Below, one piece after another: positions 7,988 to 15,880 of a stretch of 64,000 bases of DNA. This DNA comes from an uncultured archaeon (GTDB lineage: Archaea > Thermoplasmatota > Penumbrarchaeia > JASLWR01), in the NCBI GenBank assembly GCA_964423515.1, contig CAYRFL010000002.1:14657-78656 (forward strand), written 5' to 3'. Positions within the stretch are counted from its first letter, which is position 1, and every line of letters begins with the position of its first letter. A program made the translations under genes and the position numbers. The notes beneath the pieces were generated by a model that worked only from the letters and a program-made list of their open reading frames with translations, did not search any database and had not been told where the DNA came from.

Positions 7988-8196
7988 GTTGTCGGTCGAC
8001 CTCTTTCCGTTAGTCGGTATGATCTTGGTGTGATCGTAATCCAATATCTCCAGCGATGCCGCTGAAAAACAGTGTGTATAGGTGGCCAAAGAACAGATGG
8101 ACAACATTTTAAATAGTACGAATTGATTAATGGAAAAATCCAAAATCCGAAGGAATGATTCTGGTATTAATAAAAAGGTATATACGAGGTGAAAGG

Positions 8197-11142
8197 ATGG
8201 ATGAGCGCCTGTTTTCAAGAAGGATAACGATAGTTACCATAACTGCATTACTGATCTTCTCAGGATTCATGCTGGGGATAAGTTTGCCTGCAAAGAGAGC
8301 GAGGGCGGATGCGCCGATTTTTGCGACCATTAATTATAACAATCCACCCACCGGTGGCGACAGCTTCTGGGTCTCTGCCAACATATCGGAAGTTCCGGGA
8401 GCACATCAGGTGTTCTTCAACTGCACCATTGTCAGCCTGTCCTCCGAGTCGCATGCGCGGAATCTGGCAGTGACCAACCACACGGGAACATCGTGGCTCA
8501 TCGAAATGTTCGTTCCCATACCCAATGACGGAACCACCATCGATTTCAATTTCACCGCCCACAATACCACGGACGGCGGAATGGCCCGATCCAACAACGG
8601 AACCATCTCAATAACCGATACCCTGAAACCCACAGCCATTGCCAAGTGCAACACCACGGCCCAACCGACCTTGAAGGATGCGATAACGGTCGTAGAGGGA
8701 ACCACGGTGAACTTCGACGGCAGCGGCACCACGGACAACCTGCTGACGGATTCCTGGGCGAACTCGAAATGGAAGTGGGAGATACTTCCCGCCCTTACCA
8801 AGCAGGGGGAGACACAGACGCATACCTTTGCCGACGAAGGCGTTTACATAGTTACCCTCAACGTATCCGATGCCGCCGACAACTGGGACACGGACACCGT
8901 TACCGTGACGGTTGAACCCGCGGACATGCCCCCGGTACTGGCGCCGCAGGCCGTGACATATATCGCCGGGCTCAAGGACCTCGTGGAGGATTCGGACTAC
9001 ACGAACATAACGCTTCTCGACAACGGGACAGGTACGGATTACCTGTTCAACTACACCGGTCCGGGCGTCATCACCTTCAAGGTGAACGCAAGCGGAACCA
9101 TGCAGGATACCTACGAGAGCGACAATCTCACAGGTGAGATAGCCGACGTCAACGGAACGAAGATATTTACGATAAAGCCCAAGGAGAACGTCTATTTCAA
9201 GACGGACGTGGTGGAGAACGTGACCATAAATGCGACGACTGCCGTGGGTTCAATAGAATATATGATCCAGTTCAAGATAACCAGCGTTAACGATGCTGCC
9301 GTGTTCGTGCAGCCGTCGGGGGATACTGCCAGTGTGAACGAGGGTGCGGAAAGGACAATAACGGTGGTGGCAAAGGACTCCGCCGATCCGGAGGACACCC
9401 TTACGCTCACCACGAACATCACCACGGTGATACCTGCCCTAACGGCCACGGTTGTGGACACCATCAGGGACAATGCAACGAACACCCATACCTTCAAACT
9501 CAATCTGACACCGACGAACGACATGGTTGGCGATTACAACGTCAGCCTCATGATCACCGACGATGATGCCGGCTCCTCGACGAAAGCACCCCTCGTTGTC
9601 CAGAAGAACATCACGCTCTCCATCAAGAACACCAACGATGCTCCCTCGTTCGGCGGTTTCAAGATAGGGGATAAGGAGGGGAAGGAAGGTGATGATGGTG
9701 CGATCCTCTTCGATATAGACGAGGATGAGGAGGTCGTTATCAATATCACCATCGAGGATCCTGACCTTCTGCACGATGATGTCGTTTTCACCGTGGATAT
9801 CGAGGAGAAGAAGAACTACAGCAAGGAGAGTACCAAGGACAATGTGAAGATCGAGTTGGTTGGCAATAAATATGCCAACCTGACCTTCCTTCCATTGGAG
9901 AATCATAATGGCCCCGCCATGGTGAGGATCAGTCTTTCGGACGGTACGGACGTCGTTTATCAGTACATCAATTTTACCGTGAAACCCATGAACGATGATC
10001 CCAATTTTGCTACCATGAAGATCGAGCCGGGCTATAGGCTCATTGATGAGGCCACATACACATACAATCTCTGGATCAACGATACTGCGAAGAAGACCAT
10101 GTTAAAACCTGGGGATAAGACAGACATTGATGGGGATAACATAACATTCCACTGGTTTTTCAGGGCCGATCCCACCGGCAAGCTGATTTTCAATGAGAGT
10201 TGGAACTCCACGATAACCGGGATGAACATCACACACCAGTTCCCCTTCAACGGTAGCCACTCGGTATGGCTGAAAGCGACAGATGGAAAGGGAGGCTCGG
10301 CTGTAAAGAAATTCATCACAGAAATGGAAATAGTGGAGTTTATTCCTCCCTCGAAAAACGGGGACGACGGACTCGGCATATGGCTCTTCGTGATCATCGG
10401 TGCCGTTGTTCTGGTCGTGATCGTGGTAATAGTGGTTATCATCCTGATGAAGAAGAAGGGCGGTGACAAGGAGGAAGAGGACGAGTTCGGTGACATGACC
10501 CCTCCGGACCAGCAGATGGGAATGCCCGGCGGACCCGGCGTTGACCAGTTCGGTCAGCCAATTCAGCCGGGAATGCCCGGACAACAGCAGCCCGCCGTTG
10601 ATCAGTTCGGCCAGCCGATCCAGCAGGGAATGCCTGGACAACAGCAGCCCGGCGTCGATCAGTTCGGCCAGCCGATCCAGCAGGGAATGCCTGGACAACA
10701 GCAGCCCGGCATGGACCAGTTCGGTCAGCCGCAACCCGGAATGCCTGCCCAGCAGCCCGGCATGGACCAGTACGGCCAGCCTCAGCCTGGAATGCCCCAG
10801 CAGCCCGGCATGGACCAGTACGGTCAGCCTCAGCAGGCCCCGCAGCAGCCCGGCATGGACCAGTACGGCCAAGCGCAGTACGGGATGGCCCCCGCACAGC
10901 CTCAACAGCCCCCGCAGCAGCCTCAGCAGCCTGCCGTGGATCCGTACGCTCAGCAGCAGTACGGTGGGCAGTATGCACAGCCTCAGCAACCTGCACAACC
11001 GGGGCCGTACGGGCAATATCAACAGCCGCAGGCCCTCCCGACACAGGGAGCGCCCATGGGCGGCGGAAGCTCTTGTCCCTCCTGTGGCGCACCGGTGGAG
11101 CCCGGCTGGTTCCTCTGCCCGAACTGCAAGAACCAGATATGA
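8197..11142 (+). CDS. Surface protein with PKD/cadherin-like Ig domains, TM, Gln/Pro/Gly-rich repeat tail and C-terminal Zn ribbon
   Basis: Signal peptide; PKD motif (VNFDGSGTTD...HTFADEGVYIVTLNVSD); VND/TNDAP cadherin-like linkers; TM followed by KKK; ends CPSCG...CPNC. GAGGTG RBS at 8186. Confidence 0.85.
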   Translation: MDERLFSRRITIVTITALLIFSGFMLGISLPAKRARADAPIFATINYNNPPTGGDSFWVSANISEVPGAHQVFFNCTIVSLSSESHARNLAVTNHTGTSWLIEMFVPIPNDGTTIDFNFTAHNTTDGGMARSNNGTISITDTLKPTAIAKCNTTAQPTLKDAITVVEGTTVNFDGSGTTDNLLTDSWANSKWKWEILPALTKQGETQTHTFADEGVYIVTLNVSDAADNWDTDTVTVTVEPADMPPVLAPQAVTYIAGLKDLVEDSDYTNITLLDNGTGTDYLFNYTGPGVITFKVNASGTMQDTYESDNLTGEIADVNGTKIFTIKPKENVYFKTDVVENVTINATTAVGSIEYMIQFKITSVNDAAVFVQPSGDTASVNEGAERTITVVAKDSADPEDTLTLTTNITTVIPALTATVVDTIRDNATNTHTFKLNLTPTNDMVGDYNVSLMITDDDAGSSTKAPLVVQKNITLSIKNTNDAPSFGGFKIGDKEGKEGDDGAILFDIDEDEEVVINITIEDPDLLHDDVVFTVDIEEKKNYSKESTKDNVKIELVGNKYANLTFLPLENHNGPAMVRISLSDGTDVVYQYINFTVKPMNDDPNFATMKIEPGYRLIDEATYTYNLWINDTAKKTMLKPGDKTDIDGDNITFHWFFRADPTGKLIFNESWNSTITGMNITHQFPFNGSHSVWLKATDGKGGSAVKKFITEMEIVEFIPPSKNGDDGLGIWLFVIIGAVVLVVIVVIVVIILMKKKGGDKEEEDEFGDMTPPDQQMGMPGGPGVDQFGQPIQPGMPGQQQPAVDQFGQPIQQGMPGQQQPGVDQFGQPIQQGMPGQQQPGMDQFGQPQPGMPAQQPGMDQYGQPQPGMPQQPGMDQYGQPQQAPQQPGMDQYGQAQYGMAPAQPQQPPQQPQQPAVDPYAQQQYGGQYAQPQQPAQPGPYGQYQQPQALPTQGAPMGGGSSCPSCGAPVEPGWFLCPNCKNQI
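10540..10900 (+). repeat. Intragenic tandem repeat, seven DQ[FY]GQ units
   Basis: Units start at 10540, 10597, 10654, 10711, 10762, 10810, 10855 (periods 57,57,57,51,48,45 nt). Confidence 0.9.
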
Positions 11143-11233: not shown

Positions 11234-12691
11234 ATTTTCATAGCCATGGATGATACGGACTCGAGACAGGGAGGATGTACGACATACCTTCTGAGCCGGG
11301 CCCTGGAGCTGGCTTCAGCGGCCGGTTATTCTTGTGTGGGATTCCCCGGATTGGTCCGATTGAATCCGAACATACCCTTCAAGACCAGGGGCAACGGTGC
11401 GGTGGTGGCCCGACTCGCACGAAGGGAGGATATGGACGGCCTGGAAACGTTCACGTCCGGCGGTGTCGGGAACACACACATAGAATCCTTGAGAGAACGG
11501 TCACCGGAATACGATGCTGAAACGCTCTCGTCGATGGCCTCCCTCTTCGGGGAGTTGAGAAACCTTGTTTCCTCGGAATCCCATCTGGATGACGTGAACA
11601 CGAATCCGGGCCTGGTGGTCAGCCTTGACCGCTTCGATGTTTTTCAGTACCGGAGGGCGGTTCGCGAGATGTATCCTATGGAGAAGGCATTGTCTGTACT
11701 GGCATCAAAAGAGCTTACGCTTCATAAGGGCTTTGGCAACGGTCGGGGCCTCGTCGGATGCCTTGGTGCCCTCGCCTGGTTACAGAACCTCGACCTCCAT
11801 GGAATGGACCGGACATTCGAGATCATCACATACCGGAGACCGGAGTTCTGGGGAACGCCGAGGGAAGTGGATGCAGGGACAGCAAAGGAACTGGATGCCC
11901 TTCTGCCCGGAACGTTCAACAATTATGATACTGTGAACCGGAAGGCGCTGGTCTATCCCAATTCGCCGTGCCCGGTGCTTTTCGGTGTTCGGGGGGATGA
12001 TTGGCGCGAGCTGCCGGAGGTCCTGAAGATCCTGGATGTCTCCCAGATGGAACGTTGGCAGCTCTTCGTCACGAACCAGGGCACGGACGACCATCTCGTT
12101 AGCAAGGAGATGCCCGGGATCGAGGAGTATGATTCAGTGATAACCGAGGGCATCGTTGTCCGGGAGCCGTGGACGATAAAGGGGGGTCATGTCTTTTTGG
12201 TGATCGAGGGAGCGGGTGCACGGATGCTGGCAAGCGCATTCGAGCCTACCAAGGATTTTCGGCATACCGTCAGGGAGCTTCGAGCAGGTGATTCCCTGCG
12301 CCTGTACGGCGGTGTGAAGGGATCGGAGGCTTTAACAACGCAAGAAGGAGGCGAATGCCGCGGTGGAGGCGAACGGCATGAGGACCTCGACGGCCTTGCA
12401 TCGAGCGGCGGGGTAAGATCACTCTGTATCAATATAGAGAAGATGGAGATCCTGGGATTGACACATGCCCCAAGAAAGCTAGGGAATCCCATCTGTACCG
12501 GTTGCCGGAGAAGAATGAAATCCGCGGGAGCAGGCCAGGGTTACAGGTGCAGAAGATGCGGAACCACGGCGGGGGAGGATGATGCGGAATACGGCCCTGC
12601 GACCAGATCTCTTCGTCTGGGAGCGATTTACGAGGTGGATGGCGTGGCCAGGAGACACCTGTCAAAGCCACTAAGGAGAATGGGTAAATGA
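11234..12691 (+). CDS. tiaS: tRNA(Ile2) 2-agmatinylcytidine synthetase
   Basis: DDTDS...CTTY, LVRLNPNIPFKTRGNGA, PCPVLFGVRG, TNQGTDDH, FEPTKDFR, C-terminal Zn ribbon and ARRHLSKPL. First ATG is 11246; the ATT 11234 start is inferred (see findings). Confidence 0.95.
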   Translation: MFIAMDDTDSRQGGCTTYLLSRALELASAAGYSCVGFPGLVRLNPNIPFKTRGNGAVVARLARREDMDGLETFTSGGVGNTHIESLRERSPEYDAETLSSMASLFGELRNLVSSESHLDDVNTNPGLVVSLDRFDVFQYRRAVREMYPMEKALSVLASKELTLHKGFGNGRGLVGCLGALAWLQNLDLHGMDRTFEIITYRRPEFWGTPREVDAGTAKELDALLPGTFNNYDTVNRKALVYPNSPCPVLFGVRGDDWRELPEVLKILDVSQMERWQLFVTNQGTDDHLVSKEMPGIEEYDSVITEGIVVREPWTIKGGHVFLVIEGAGARMLASAFEPTKDFRHTVRELRAGDSLRLYGGVKGSEALTTQEGGECRGGGERHEDLDGLASSGGVRSLCINIEKMEILGLTHAPRKLGNPICTGCRRRMKSAGAGQGYRCRRCGTTAGEDDAEYGPATRSLRLGAIYEVDGVARRHLSKPLRRMGK

Positions 12692-12998: not shown

Positions 12999-13985
12999 TT
13001 GATATCCCCGATGATAGTTACCGATGAGCTCACGAAGAGGTATCCCGTAAAGGTTTCACGGTGGAAGAGACTGGTGGGACGGAAGGGGAAGCCCCGTGAA
13101 GATTCCATACTTGCGGTGGATCGGCTTCGGCTCGAGGTTAAGAAGGGCGAGGTCTTCGGTTTTCTCGGTCCCAACGGTGCCGGGAAGACCACCACCATCA
13201 AGATGCTCATCGGGCTCATGCCTCCCACATCCGGAACGGCAAGGGTCGCCGGTCACGATGTAGAGAGGGATAAGGTCGAGGTACAGGCGTGCGTCGGCTA
13301 TATGCCGGAGTCCCCTTCTTTCTACTCCAGGATATCCGTGGAGAGGACCCTGGGCTATTATTCGCGCCTCTATTCGATCTCCAAGCATGAATCGACCGCC
13401 CGCATAGCGGAGTGTCTCGAGACGGTGGGGCTGACGGGAGAGAGGGGGAAGCCCTGCGGGAAACTATCATTTGGAATGAGAAAACGTTTGTCCCTGGCCC
13501 AGGCACTCCTCCACGAACCGGAACTTCTGATCTTGGACGAGCCCACCGGGGGGCTGGACCCACAGGGCAAGAGGGATTTCCAGGACCTCCTGAGAACTCT
13601 ATCCGGAGATGGCATTACCATCTTCATGTCCTCGCATCTTCTAGGCGAGATGCAGAAGATATGTTCTAACGTCGGGATCATCAACAGCGGAAGGCTCATT
13701 GCAGATGGTTCTCTGTCCGACCTGCAGCGAAGATTGTCCAAGAAGGCAAAGGTCAGGATCGCAATACGGGTCAGATCCCCCGCATCCGTGCCATTGGAGG
13801 AGATCCGGGCACGACCGGAGGTGGCCGATGCGACCCTCAGAACGGATATTCTCACCATAATGGCGCATGACGAGGATGTCTCCTCGGAGATAAATCGACT
13901 GCTGGTCTCCAGGAACTGCCAGGTCCGATCCATGGTCATCGAGGAACCGGAACTTGAGGATATCTTCTTCGATATCACGTCCTGA
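12999..13985 (+). CDS. ABC transporter ATP-binding protein (ABC-2/multidrug type)
   Basis: GPNGAGKTT Walker A, LSFGMRKR signature, LILDEP Walker B, SSH; start TTG 12999 or ATG 13011. Confidence 0.92.
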   Translation: MISPMIVTDELTKRYPVKVSRWKRLVGRKGKPREDSILAVDRLRLEVKKGEVFGFLGPNGAGKTTTIKMLIGLMPPTSGTARVAGHDVERDKVEVQACVGYMPESPSFYSRISVERTLGYYSRLYSISKHESTARIAECLETVGLTGERGKPCGKLSFGMRKRLSLAQALLHEPELLILDEPTGGLDPQGKRDFQDLLRTLSGDGITIFMSSHLLGEMQKICSNVGIINSGRLIADGSLSDLQRRLSKKAKVRIAIRVRSPASVPLEEIRARPEVADATLRTDILTIMAHDEDVSSEINRLLVSRNCQVRSMVIEEPELEDIFFDITS

Positions 13986-14433
13986 GAGTCCTGCGGGTCC
14001 TTCTTACGGGAGTGGTCTTGCGGGATATCGTTTCCCAGGATTCCTTCATCTCAACCAGAGCCATTCCCTTTCTCTCGAAAAGCTCCATGAACTCCAGTTC
14101 GCTCAGGTATGGTGTGTCCAGAGGATCCCTTCCCAATCTTGTCGAGAAGGCCCTCATCAATCGATGGAGGGACTGATCCTTTCCCGGACTCTGCGGGGAT
14201 ATGATTATCACGGACTGCCAGTTGGATCCGCCGATGACTTCGCTCTCGAGCGAAAGGAGGAGGCCGTCGAGATCGACACTGATGGACCAGGGATAGTAAT
14301 CCCGTACCCACCGCAGACCGAATTCCGACCTGCCCTTCCTCGACCTGAGAGCATCGAAGAAAGCCTCGCCCACGTCGGTCAGCATCAGACGGTCCTTGAA
14401 GTTCTTGGGGGACTTGAGCCAGCCCTTCTTCAA
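13975..14433 (-). CDS. Hypothetical protein (possibly truncated or degenerate)
   Basis: Open frame with no recognisable motif; it extends to a TAA near 14542 without a canonical start upstream of TTG 14433. Confidence 0.3.
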   Translation of the reverse strand: MKKGWLKSPKNFKDRLMLTDVGEAFFDALRSRKGRSEFGLRWVRDYYPWSISVDLDGLLLSLESEVIGGSNWQSVIIISPQSPGKDQSLHRLMRAFSTRLGRDPLDTPYLSELEFMELFERKGMALVEMKESWETISRKTTPVRRTRRTLRT

Positions 14434-14740
14434 TCCGCTCTTGGAGACGCTGGGTCGGAGATGGTTCGGAAAGGCGATATAGATATAGAATCCCCCGTTC
14501 TCTGTGAAGCTACTGCCGTTCGGGCAAGGAAAACAGCTCTGTTACACGTGATTCTTGAAATCCTTGATGCATCAAAGATACACCGAAGCTTCGCGCATAT
14601 GACAATACGCTGTGGGTATTGTTGAGAGGTTACTACGATATAAAATTAATCATGACCATGAGTGAAAATATAAAAACCGATGCGTCATGGAATTGTGGAA
14701 ATATTACCAAACGAAGCAGACCGATGAATAGAAATTGAAA

Positions 14741-14824
14741 TGCGAGGGCTGGGATTCGAACCCAGGAACCACTCAGGACTAGACCCTGAATCTAGCGCCG
14801 TTGACCTGGCTTGGCTACCCTCGC
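14741..14824 (-). tRNA. tRNA-Leu (CAG)
   Basis: Reverse strand GCGAGGG...CTAGA-TTCAGGG-TCTAG, long variable arm, GGTTCGAATCC, CCCTCGC-A. Confidence 0.95.
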
Positions 14825-15105
14825 ACCTGTTTCGATATCGTCCCATCTGTCCCCATTCGTCATCTTTCTGCCAGGTCAACGGGGACCGGCGCGCAACACA
14901 CCTGTTGCGCGCTGAGTTCAGCCCGCAGGGGTGAACGCTATTGACCTGGCTTGGCTACCCTCGCACCTGTTTTGATATCGCCCCGTCTGTCCCCATTCGT
15001 CATCTTTCTGCCAGGTCAACGGGGACCGGTGCGCAACACACCTGTTGCGCGCTGAGTTCAGCCCGCAGGGGTGAACGCTATTGACCTGGCTTGGCTACCC
15101 TCGCA
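14801..15105 (-). repeat. 140-bp tandem repeat (2 units plus 25 nt) containing the 5' 24 nt of tRNA-Leu
   Basis: ttgacctggcttggctaccctcgca recurs at 14801, 14941 and 15081; the two full units differ at 4 of 140 positions. Confidence 0.97.
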
Positions 15106-15196
15106 TCCATCGTTTACTACTATAGGTCCCCAGATGTTCTGGATAATCTAGATTTGGGATTCGAGAACACCGGGCTGTGCCGAGAATGGAAGAGCC

Positions 15197-15577
15197 CTAT
15201 TCGGATTCCTCTTCCCCTTCTCCATCTTCCTTCTTGTTTATCTCATCCAGGATATCCCACGTCTGATCATATATCCTGTCGTCCAGCTGTGTAAGCTCCA
15301 ATCTCACCCGCAGCTTACCCTTGTCGAAAAAGATGTAGGCGGATTTAACCTGTGAACGGAAACATCGGACGCTCTTCCCCTTGTTCGAGAGCTTTGTATC
15401 CACGCACTTGATAAGGCCCATGGATACCAGCTTCTTTATCTTCTTGTAGCACACCGCCACCGGGATGTCCAGCTGTTTGCTGAGCTCCTGTGCGGTCTTG
15501 GGATATTTAAAGGAAGCGGCCAGAATCCTCAGTACGACCTCATCTGCAAAAAGTTTCGCCATTTTAAGTGCTTCCAT
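15197..15577 (-). CDS. Winged helix-turn-helix transcriptional regulator (ArsR/Lrp-like HTH)
   Basis: RIL...PKTAQELSKQLDIPVAVCYKKIKKLVSMGLI; GAGGTG RBS before ATG 15577. Confidence 0.85.
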   Translation of the reverse strand: MEALKMAKLFADEVVLRILAASFKYPKTAQELSKQLDIPVAVCYKKIKKLVSMGLIKCVDTKLSNKGKSVRCFRSQVKSAYIFFDKGKLRVRLELTQLDDRIYDQTWDILDEINKKEDGEGEEESE

Positions 15578-15880
15578 CGAGATACACCTCTCCCGGCACG
15601 GTCCGACCATTGATGACAATCATCTCTCCATGCCGTTAAAAACAGACTTTCCTCCCATATCGAGTATCGTCCGTCGTGATATGATGAGCCAAGTCTACCA
15701 TTTATACCGGGCACAATCGACGGCCCCTGTAATATAAAATACTATATAAATAGATTTCGCCAGGCAACCGAAGCGGGCCCCCTTGGCGTTGAGGTCGCCG
15801 GTGCGGACGGTCTGTATGCAGATTCTTTTCGAAGGGGGGACCCGGGGATCGGAACGGTTCTTTCCCGGTCCCTTCCAGAT

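Follow-up and report, generated by a model that had tools for sequence, protein, structure and literature searches.

Why a tRNA gene should be preceded by two antisense copies of a piece of itself is the question raised by the tRNA-Leu(CAG) locus of the window, i.e., the whole 64,000-nt stretch of archaeal DNA analyzed in this study. The intact gene lies on the minus strand (14740–14825 by ARAGORN; 14741–14824 by Rfam RF00005). Upstream of it are two 140-bp units with a mutual identity of 96%, each ending in nucleotides (nt) 1–24 of the tRNA. The sequence GCCAGGTCAACGG was found on the plus strand at 14870–14882 and 15010–15022 and on the minus strand at 14798–14810, in the D region of the tRNA. 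With one mismatch allowed, the window contained no match beyond these three (chance mean 0.05), which confirmed the exact inverted copies claimed by the sequence-only reading. The target site consists of 10 duplicated nucleotides plus CGG (14798–14800), the latter lying past a breakpoint at 14800/14801, which is standard position 21/22 in our numbering. Both upstream 5′ fragments read ...GCCAGGTCAA followed by TAGCG, where the intact gene has CGGCG, the split falling after GGTCAA. It was likewise correct that the 13-nt copy, here called the arm, pairs over 13 nt with the intact tRNA and over 10 nt with the duplicated fragments.

On the plus strand, each unit runs in the order tail, 13-nt target copy, GGA loop, 3-nt direct copy, hairpin X, hairpin Y, linker and tRNA fragment. 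In the proximal unit, the tail (14825–14869, no strand assigned) is followed by the arm (14870–14882, +), which is antisense to the tRNA in the transcript. The last 3 nt of the arm, a GGA loop (14883–14885) and a cis copy of the junction bases (14886–14888) make up a 3-bp mini-hairpin (14880–14888, +) in the DNA fold and the family parse. The 52-nt two-hairpin insert (14889–14940, +), which folds and has compensatory stems in relatives, comprises hairpin X (14889–14912, with a stem of 10 bp), hairpin Y (14916–14936, with a GCA triloop) and a 4-nt linker (14937–14940). The unit closes with a second tRNA 5′ fragment, nt 1–24 (14941–14964, −). The distal unit repeats this arrangement, with the tail at 14965–15009 (no strand assigned), the arm at 15010–15022 (+), the mini-hairpin at 15020–15028 (+), the insert at 15029–15080 (+) and a tRNA 5′ fragment, nt 1–24, at 15081–15104 (−). 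The first 24 nt of the present tRNA-Leu(CAG) were apparently supplied by the proximal unit, and the distal fragment would be the original start of the gene, still beside its native upstream DNA, as we infer from the filled and empty Leu(GAG) flanks in G001 and G003. An AT-rich, TATA-like stretch (15117–15124, −), aligned in G000, which is the genome of the window, and in G001 and G003, is a candidate promoter; a consensus scan gave no match to TTTAWATA in it. An Rfam search at E ≤ 10 over 14500–15300 returned the tRNA plus one chance match (E = 6.1) outside the units, and nothing else. One of four sequencing runs gave a contig holding a single unit, which might represent a genuine allele or a collapsed assembly.

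The genes flanking tRNA-Leu(CAG) were unchanged in relatives. A winged-helix regulator (15197–15619, −) lies upstream of the tRNA, and an unannotated 152-aa ORF (13975–14433, −) lies downstream. The window also contains a TiaS-family gene (11246–12691, +) and a gene (8155–11142, +) for a 995-aa secreted protein with PKD-like repeats, the cytoplasmic tail of which has Gln/Gly/Pro-rich repeats and a zinc ribbon at its end.

The sequence-only reading had offered two explanations for the arm, namely a guide or inverted core site for its own target, and a folding switch in the leader. The first was examined through covariation in homologues. Among 58 Leu tRNAs sharing the D-loop type of the window, 42 arm-like rows were found, and at 77 variable positions the arm agreed with its own tRNA at 56, with the window's tRNA at 10 and with neither at 11; the 42 rows include several insert hairpins or chance matches, and kin were counted separately though they are not independent. 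At the core variable positions, the agreement with the own tRNA was 13/15. The antisense segment thus co-varies with the adjacent tRNA, the exceptions being L061 and L109. After a mismatched middle, many arms pair again towards nt 1 of the tRNA. The overhang of the arm past the breakpoint, counted in 56 units without demanding the presence of a mini-hairpin, was 3 nt in 30, 2–4 nt in 49, 7 nt in 6 and 1 nt in 1, and perfect pairing on the duplicated side of these units mostly covered 7–10 nt. Of the guide explanation, the tracking of the adjacent tRNA and the near-fixed 3-nt crossing of the breakpoint therefore stood; guiding proper, as against a copy made during insertion, is a conjecture, and the enzyme search found none.

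Units at Leu(CAG) were also present in G001 and G003 and had decayed in G002. Leu(GAG) had a unit in G001 and G002 but none in G000 or G003; in G001, the Leu(CAG) and Leu(GAG) genes carried a nearly identical insert and arm. In the alignment of G000, G001 and G003, the insert and arm were conserved with compensatory stem changes, and the tails diverged. A scan of a genome collection gave 18 loci, of which 17 were labelled Thermoplasmatota or a subgroup and one was an uncultured archaeon. Among nine loci from a metagenome scan, L109 and L112 were true units, L113 and L115 were false, and L108, L111 and L114 had poor arm matches only. The patchy presence at Leu(GAG) and the near-identity of the two units of G001 count for mobility. 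The best reading is a non-autonomous insertion element that would rebuild the target junction with its folded strand; the 13-nt arm is, on balance, probably the targeting arm of such a 140-bp gene-less element, which would insert in and rebuild tRNA genes and work on single-stranded DNA. Against it count the armless units at Val genes, the variable junctions and the lack of a tracking enzyme, and it leaves unexplained how arms are rewritten to suit new tRNAs.

The layout of a tRNA end, a two-hairpin insert, a mini-hairpin and an antisense arm was found upstream of some and downstream of many tRNA genes in this class of Thermoplasmatota, the downstream units having been recognized by reading most tRNA loci of three relatives. 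The downstream units are the reverse complement of the upstream ones, and the hairpin modules are common to both. Antisense stretches of at least 10 nt lay downstream of 25/38 tRNAs in G009, 18/42 in G017 and 0/41 in G001; the corresponding numbers for sense copies of at least 12 nt were 27/38, 20/42 and 2/41, respectively. The best-scoring tRNA for an arm was its own one in 19/25 cases in G009 and in 6/18 in G017. A T-loop pattern was present in 19/401 genomes of the phylum, among them 17/24 of family f7, and its reversed control in 0/401. In G055, which belongs to another class, it gave two loci, both real units on reading, and in G293 one candidate match. The units are 110–200 bp long and have no ORFs, and their junction sequences vary, with none conserved. 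The unit ends are not inverted and the duplication is 12–66 nt, on which grounds a MITE (TIR plus short fixed TSD) was rejected.

Several other arrangements were seen at tRNA genes. Upstream of tRNA-Thr(GGT) in G017 (L127), hairpin modules break up a tandem full-length tRNA copy at its anticodon stem and its T loop. Short upstream units occur in G000 on C100 (Ala TGC, where they are tandem), C82 (Ala GGC) and C119, and in G001 at L192 and L245; they combine tRNA nt 1–9 with a small hairpin and a tail, the opposite strand of which has a GCGAAGC-type motif. The tails of upstream units at L151, L218, L219 and L224 (Arg and Pro genes of G017) have a TATA-like element, and therefore the rebuilt tRNA may own a promoter. 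Downstream of tRNA-Ala(GGC) in G017 (L137), a unit array includes a 301-aa ORF resembling an integrase-core transposase, which we take to be IS481-like. In addition, the tRNA-Lys(TTT) gene at G000:C108:1844-2070, called Arg by ARAGORN, has a 141-nt D-loop intron with a possible bulge-helix-bulge on inspection.

The downstream units bear on the second explanation, in which the leader would pair with the pre-tRNA in its D region and control tRNA-Leu maturation, masked by an alternative helix or the upstream fragment. The overlap between the arm and an alternative helix, pointed out earlier, was verified: the minus-strand GTCCCCGTT (14878–14886) pairs with 14849–14857 in the proximal tail over 9 bp including one G-U, and on the transcribed strand this helix can mask the junction-crossing end of the arm. 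Such a switch is energetically possible, with a modelled pairing between the proximal arm and the D region of p = 0.97 at 37 °C and a blocked state of −154.6 kcal/mol against −143.6 and −145.0 kcal/mol, about 10 below the forced cloverleaf folds, although the models leave out tertiary structure and modification. Until the tRNA has been transcribed, the arm is engaged in upstream pairing (0.85), and in a model lacking the upstream fragment, both the masking helix and the acceptor stem are formed. Moreover, the wobbles of the masking helix favour the transcribed strand (4 G-U, 0 A-C), and 4/4 f1 genomes have retained the unit at Leu(CAG). However, the switch fails to explain why the units exist, because most f7 members lie downstream in the opposite orientation, many orthologous Leu genes are empty and the masking helix occurs in 6/17 upstream Leu/Ser units, being missing in G001 and G003; the decay of the units in G002 and the absence of an Rfam family also speak against it. 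A switch cannot account for downstream, inverted or intergenic members, and as the explanation of the arm it is improbable. Control of maturation would be at most secondary and is probably a side effect, and the masking helix may be a secondary adaptation that protects the tRNA from its own leader.

Known RNA classes were also considered. A C/D-box guide RNA was rejected, with no Rfam match and with box-like words that were not conserved in the alignment. An HDV-like ribozyme was rejected, with no Rfam match and only 2–3 nt between the P2 and P1 strands. An archaeal tRNA intron or split tRNA was rejected on inspection, as no central helix can be formed at the insert end, which only 3 nt of a 3′ exon follow. 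Inspection for the known motifs spoke against the HDV-like, twister, hammerhead, C/D-box and BHB-intron readings, which were dismissed.

The predicted plus-strand fold of a unit, obtained with DNA energies, was a four-way junction, with the arm paired to the tRNA fragment of its own unit. The plus and minus strands of two units gave −34.2 vs −31.1 and −30.9 vs −27.2 kcal/mol, respectively. For 30 non-redundant inserts, which were drawn from 39 and chosen for having a mini-hairpin, the better-folding strand was set by the element and not by tRNA transcription, being antisense to the tRNA upstream and sense downstream. This held in 27/30 with DNA energies (11/13 upstream, 16/17 downstream) and in nearly as many, 25/30, with RNA energies, and G-T pairs numbered 23 on the element-defined strand vs 4 on the other. 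The loop of the mini-hairpin was GNA in 17/30 (11/13 upstream, 6/17 downstream), and the last hairpin had a triloop in 19/30; GNRA or UNCG tetraloops were found in 0/13. The perfect-stem triloops of downstream inserts had no GNA bias (4 GNA, 4 TNC). In the window, the mini-hairpin is closed by a G-C pair, which is the less stable closing pair for such mini-hairpins. According to PMC13037366, the stability of GNA mini-hairpins is far greater in DNA than in RNA. Since triloops dominate, single-stranded DNA is the simplest reading of the working molecule, and an element-borne RNA is also conceivable.

If the working molecule were RNA, the units might be mini-retroelements, in which a unit-length RNA would pair with the target and enter it as a copy made by target-primed reverse transcription, the tRNA-end duplication being a TSD. 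The product geometry fits this scheme, the strand bias persists with RNA energies, and the duplications often stop close to the mature tRNA ends, a few bases away at most. However, some upstream duplications take in 20–60 nt of genomic leader, and the loops are triloops, with GNRA or UNCG loops absent. Furthermore, reverse transcriptase (RT; PF00078) was found in only 10/37 genomes of the class and did not track the family, the hairpin modules were at none of the RT loci, and the two RT loci with their flanks read are, presumably, group II intron-like, judging from the end motif. For a mature-tRNA template, the CCA test gave 12 in the proximal vs 6 in the last copy, which is no clear asymmetry and was unpersuasive. 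A mini-retroelement is accordingly highly improbable.

Beyond the observed layout, covariation, 3-nt overhang, strand asymmetry and patchy, shared presence, the steps of the preferred single-stranded DNA element may be proposed. In the predicted fold, the 3 extra arm bases would be kept in the mini-hairpin while the arm pairs with its own fragment, and the folded single strand would serve as the attachment site. With an enzyme provided in trans, one strand would be swapped between the insert/fragment junction and 14800/14801 of the intact gene. The 3 extra bases would pair with the incoming target end and fix the register, and replication would finish the insertion. The unit's fragment would restore the gene, with the old start pushed upstream. 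The target site would be regenerated by the insertion, and therefore units would accumulate in tandem.

A candidate for this enzyme was sought in 37 genomes of the class; most of the searched genomes are incomplete, and the negatives mean not found rather than absent. Y1 TnpA (PF01797) was detected in 6/37 and in 0/24 of f7, IS110 (PF02371) in 13/37 with none in G000, and Cas1 (PF01867) in 7/37, and none of them tracked the family. REP-type TnpA (NF047646) was above the cut-off in 0/37, no REPtron-like pair was found in G000, and the sole Y1 protein of G000 was an IS200 TnpA with its own ends. Tyrosine recombinases (PF00589) were present in 28/37, including 12/12 of the good-quality genomes, and were not linked to the units; the score of the G000 protein was slightly below the XerA and integron-integrase cut-offs. 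BLAST of the inserts beside 105 enzyme loci gave nothing but one tRNA-Val unit. No recurrent neighbour gene family was found beside the units, and the seven long-spaced loci that were read included no gene-carrying unit, barring the unrelated transposase insertion in L137. In viral contigs, two matches were tRNA-Ser genes, none of 89 matches had paired arms and no unit was found. Two kinds of enzyme would fit, a tyrosine recombinase if the minus strand is its substrate and an unrecognised HUH enzyme if it is the plus strand.

The XerA/integron-integrase-like genes have paired inverted sites at L247 (G000:C186), L248 (G000:C202), L281–L286, L292, L293, L306 and L307. Several of these loci have a small neighbouring ORF without a Pfam match, and the recombinase copy on C202 is truncated and lies beside two REP-like elements. 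The flanking sites, presumably dif- or attC-like, differ from the units.

The units at Val genes gave a different picture of the arm. Val(TAC) (L039, C27:17989-18329) and Val(CAC) (L040, C20:37729-37946) of G000 have upstream 5′-half copies (about nt 1–37) and two-hairpin inserts at the D-loop position used at Leu. The antisense arm is replaced by about 16 nt of tRNA sequence in sense orientation, and therefore the insert can arrive armless. Two to three inserts were stacked at the Val loci of relatives (L078 and L079). Related hairpin modules were also inserted singly, in tandem and nested within a REP-like intergenic family of G000, for which a profile from 16 seeds gave about 113 candidate loci (matches as scored), for instance C77:3080-3250, C23:9233-9541 and C8:59067-59313. 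A REP-like locus consists of two imperfect hairpins, the second of which receives the tandem or nested modules, and its hairpins are common with those of the Leu unit.

These loci favour the main rival of the preferred reading, in which the arm is a footprint or landing pad, i.e., a fold-back (template-switch) copy self-primed at the 3-bp mini-hairpin, and only the two-hairpin module is mobile, landing near the tips of single-stranded hairpins such as tRNA arms, fold-backs and REP-like stems. The Val units and the whole tRNA-Thr copy in G017 have modules and no arm, modules are tandem and nested in REP-like hairpin tips, and a near-empty hairpin with a 2-nt insert was found (L070). In addition, the three junction bases are ordered forward-reverse-forward, the arms often extend as far as the tRNA terminus and on into a palindromic tail, and the covariation is accounted for without reprogramming. 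However, most arms break about 8–10 bp from the junction, unlike random decay. The low own-tRNA agreement of the G017 arms (6/18 only) looks as if they had been brought from elsewhere, and the arm of L061 fits another D-loop variant. Moreover, the insert and arm were kept together over three genera while the tails diverged. We therefore consider a footprint rather unlikely.

A stronger version of the preferred element is natural DNA-guided insertion, in which a single-stranded DNA element of 100–200 bp, with an arm of 9–16 nt rewritten at each site, programs an uncharacterised recombinase and, in some archaea, has spread to the two ends of most tRNA genes. This version is doubtful. Should the arm indeed program insertion, the units would amount to DNA-guided integration that is retargeted in nature and uses a very small donor, and the enzyme behind it could be considered as a tool for genome writing. 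If the arms are by-products, the units would still represent an undescribed, active REP-like archaeal family that fragments, duplicates and rebuilds tRNA genes, affecting them in the D-loop, anticodon and T-loop. This would have a bearing on the origin of split and interrupted archaeal tRNA genes, and pre-tRNAs would be obliged to mature from behind long antisense-bearing leaders.

Among known systems, integrative elements of tRNA genes insert inside the gene, restore an intact gene and displace a fragment, as described in PMC8371274 and PMC3293823. Like these elements (pTN3-like integrases using the 5′ half; Caldiarchaeum tRNA-Thr-F), the units restore the tRNA and displace a fragment. However, they are 140 bp long and tandem, have a D-loop breakpoint, occupy both gene ends and both strands and contain an inverted target copy; an integrase gene was not found in or beside them. 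In PMC3293823, the word "inverted" occurs 0 times.

In CTXphi attP(+)/IMEX and integron attC, two inverted arms fold a single-stranded DNA site, one strand is exchanged and replication resolves the product, with specificity depending on a small number of bases beside the cut (PMC4246890). The folded single-stranded site proposed in our study is alike, but the arms of the units copy a locus-specific tRNA and not dif or GTTRRRY, and the units are without cargo genes and a linked recombinase. Xer/IntI-like recombinases are present in the class (PF00589, 28/37), but their flanking sites are unlike the tRNA-derived arms. An integron attC cassette was rejected, the G|TT occurring at the Leu site only and the T-loop, Ser and Val junctions lacking GTT/AAC.

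REP/BIME/REPIN sequences are short imperfect palindromes with many intergenic copies and G-T pairs on one strand (PMC3733652). The multi-copy intergenic imperfect palindromes of G000, tandem and nested at the candidate loci counted above, match this description. In contrast to REP/RAYT, a RAYT above the cut-off was found in 0/37 genomes, and the tRNA units are without a terminal GTAG tag and have target copies. Of the Y1 proteins, the IS200 subclass was the only one observed in Archaea according to PMC6006769. IS608 has single-stranded DNA hairpin ends, no classical TSD and a DNA–DNA target pairing that can be extended to 12–17 nt by design (PMC5934647). The natural guide of IS200/IS605 is 4 nt and fixed, whereas the arms of the units are 9–16 nt and locus-specific; the units also duplicate a 20–25-nt piece of the target, and a cognate TnpA was found in 0/24 f7 genomes. 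IMEX set aside, the units thus depart from each compared class in a defining feature. The layout is not described in the literature searched, subscription papers and supplements lying outside its scope, and the units apparently form an undescribed family of non-autonomous, tRNA-targeting hairpin elements.
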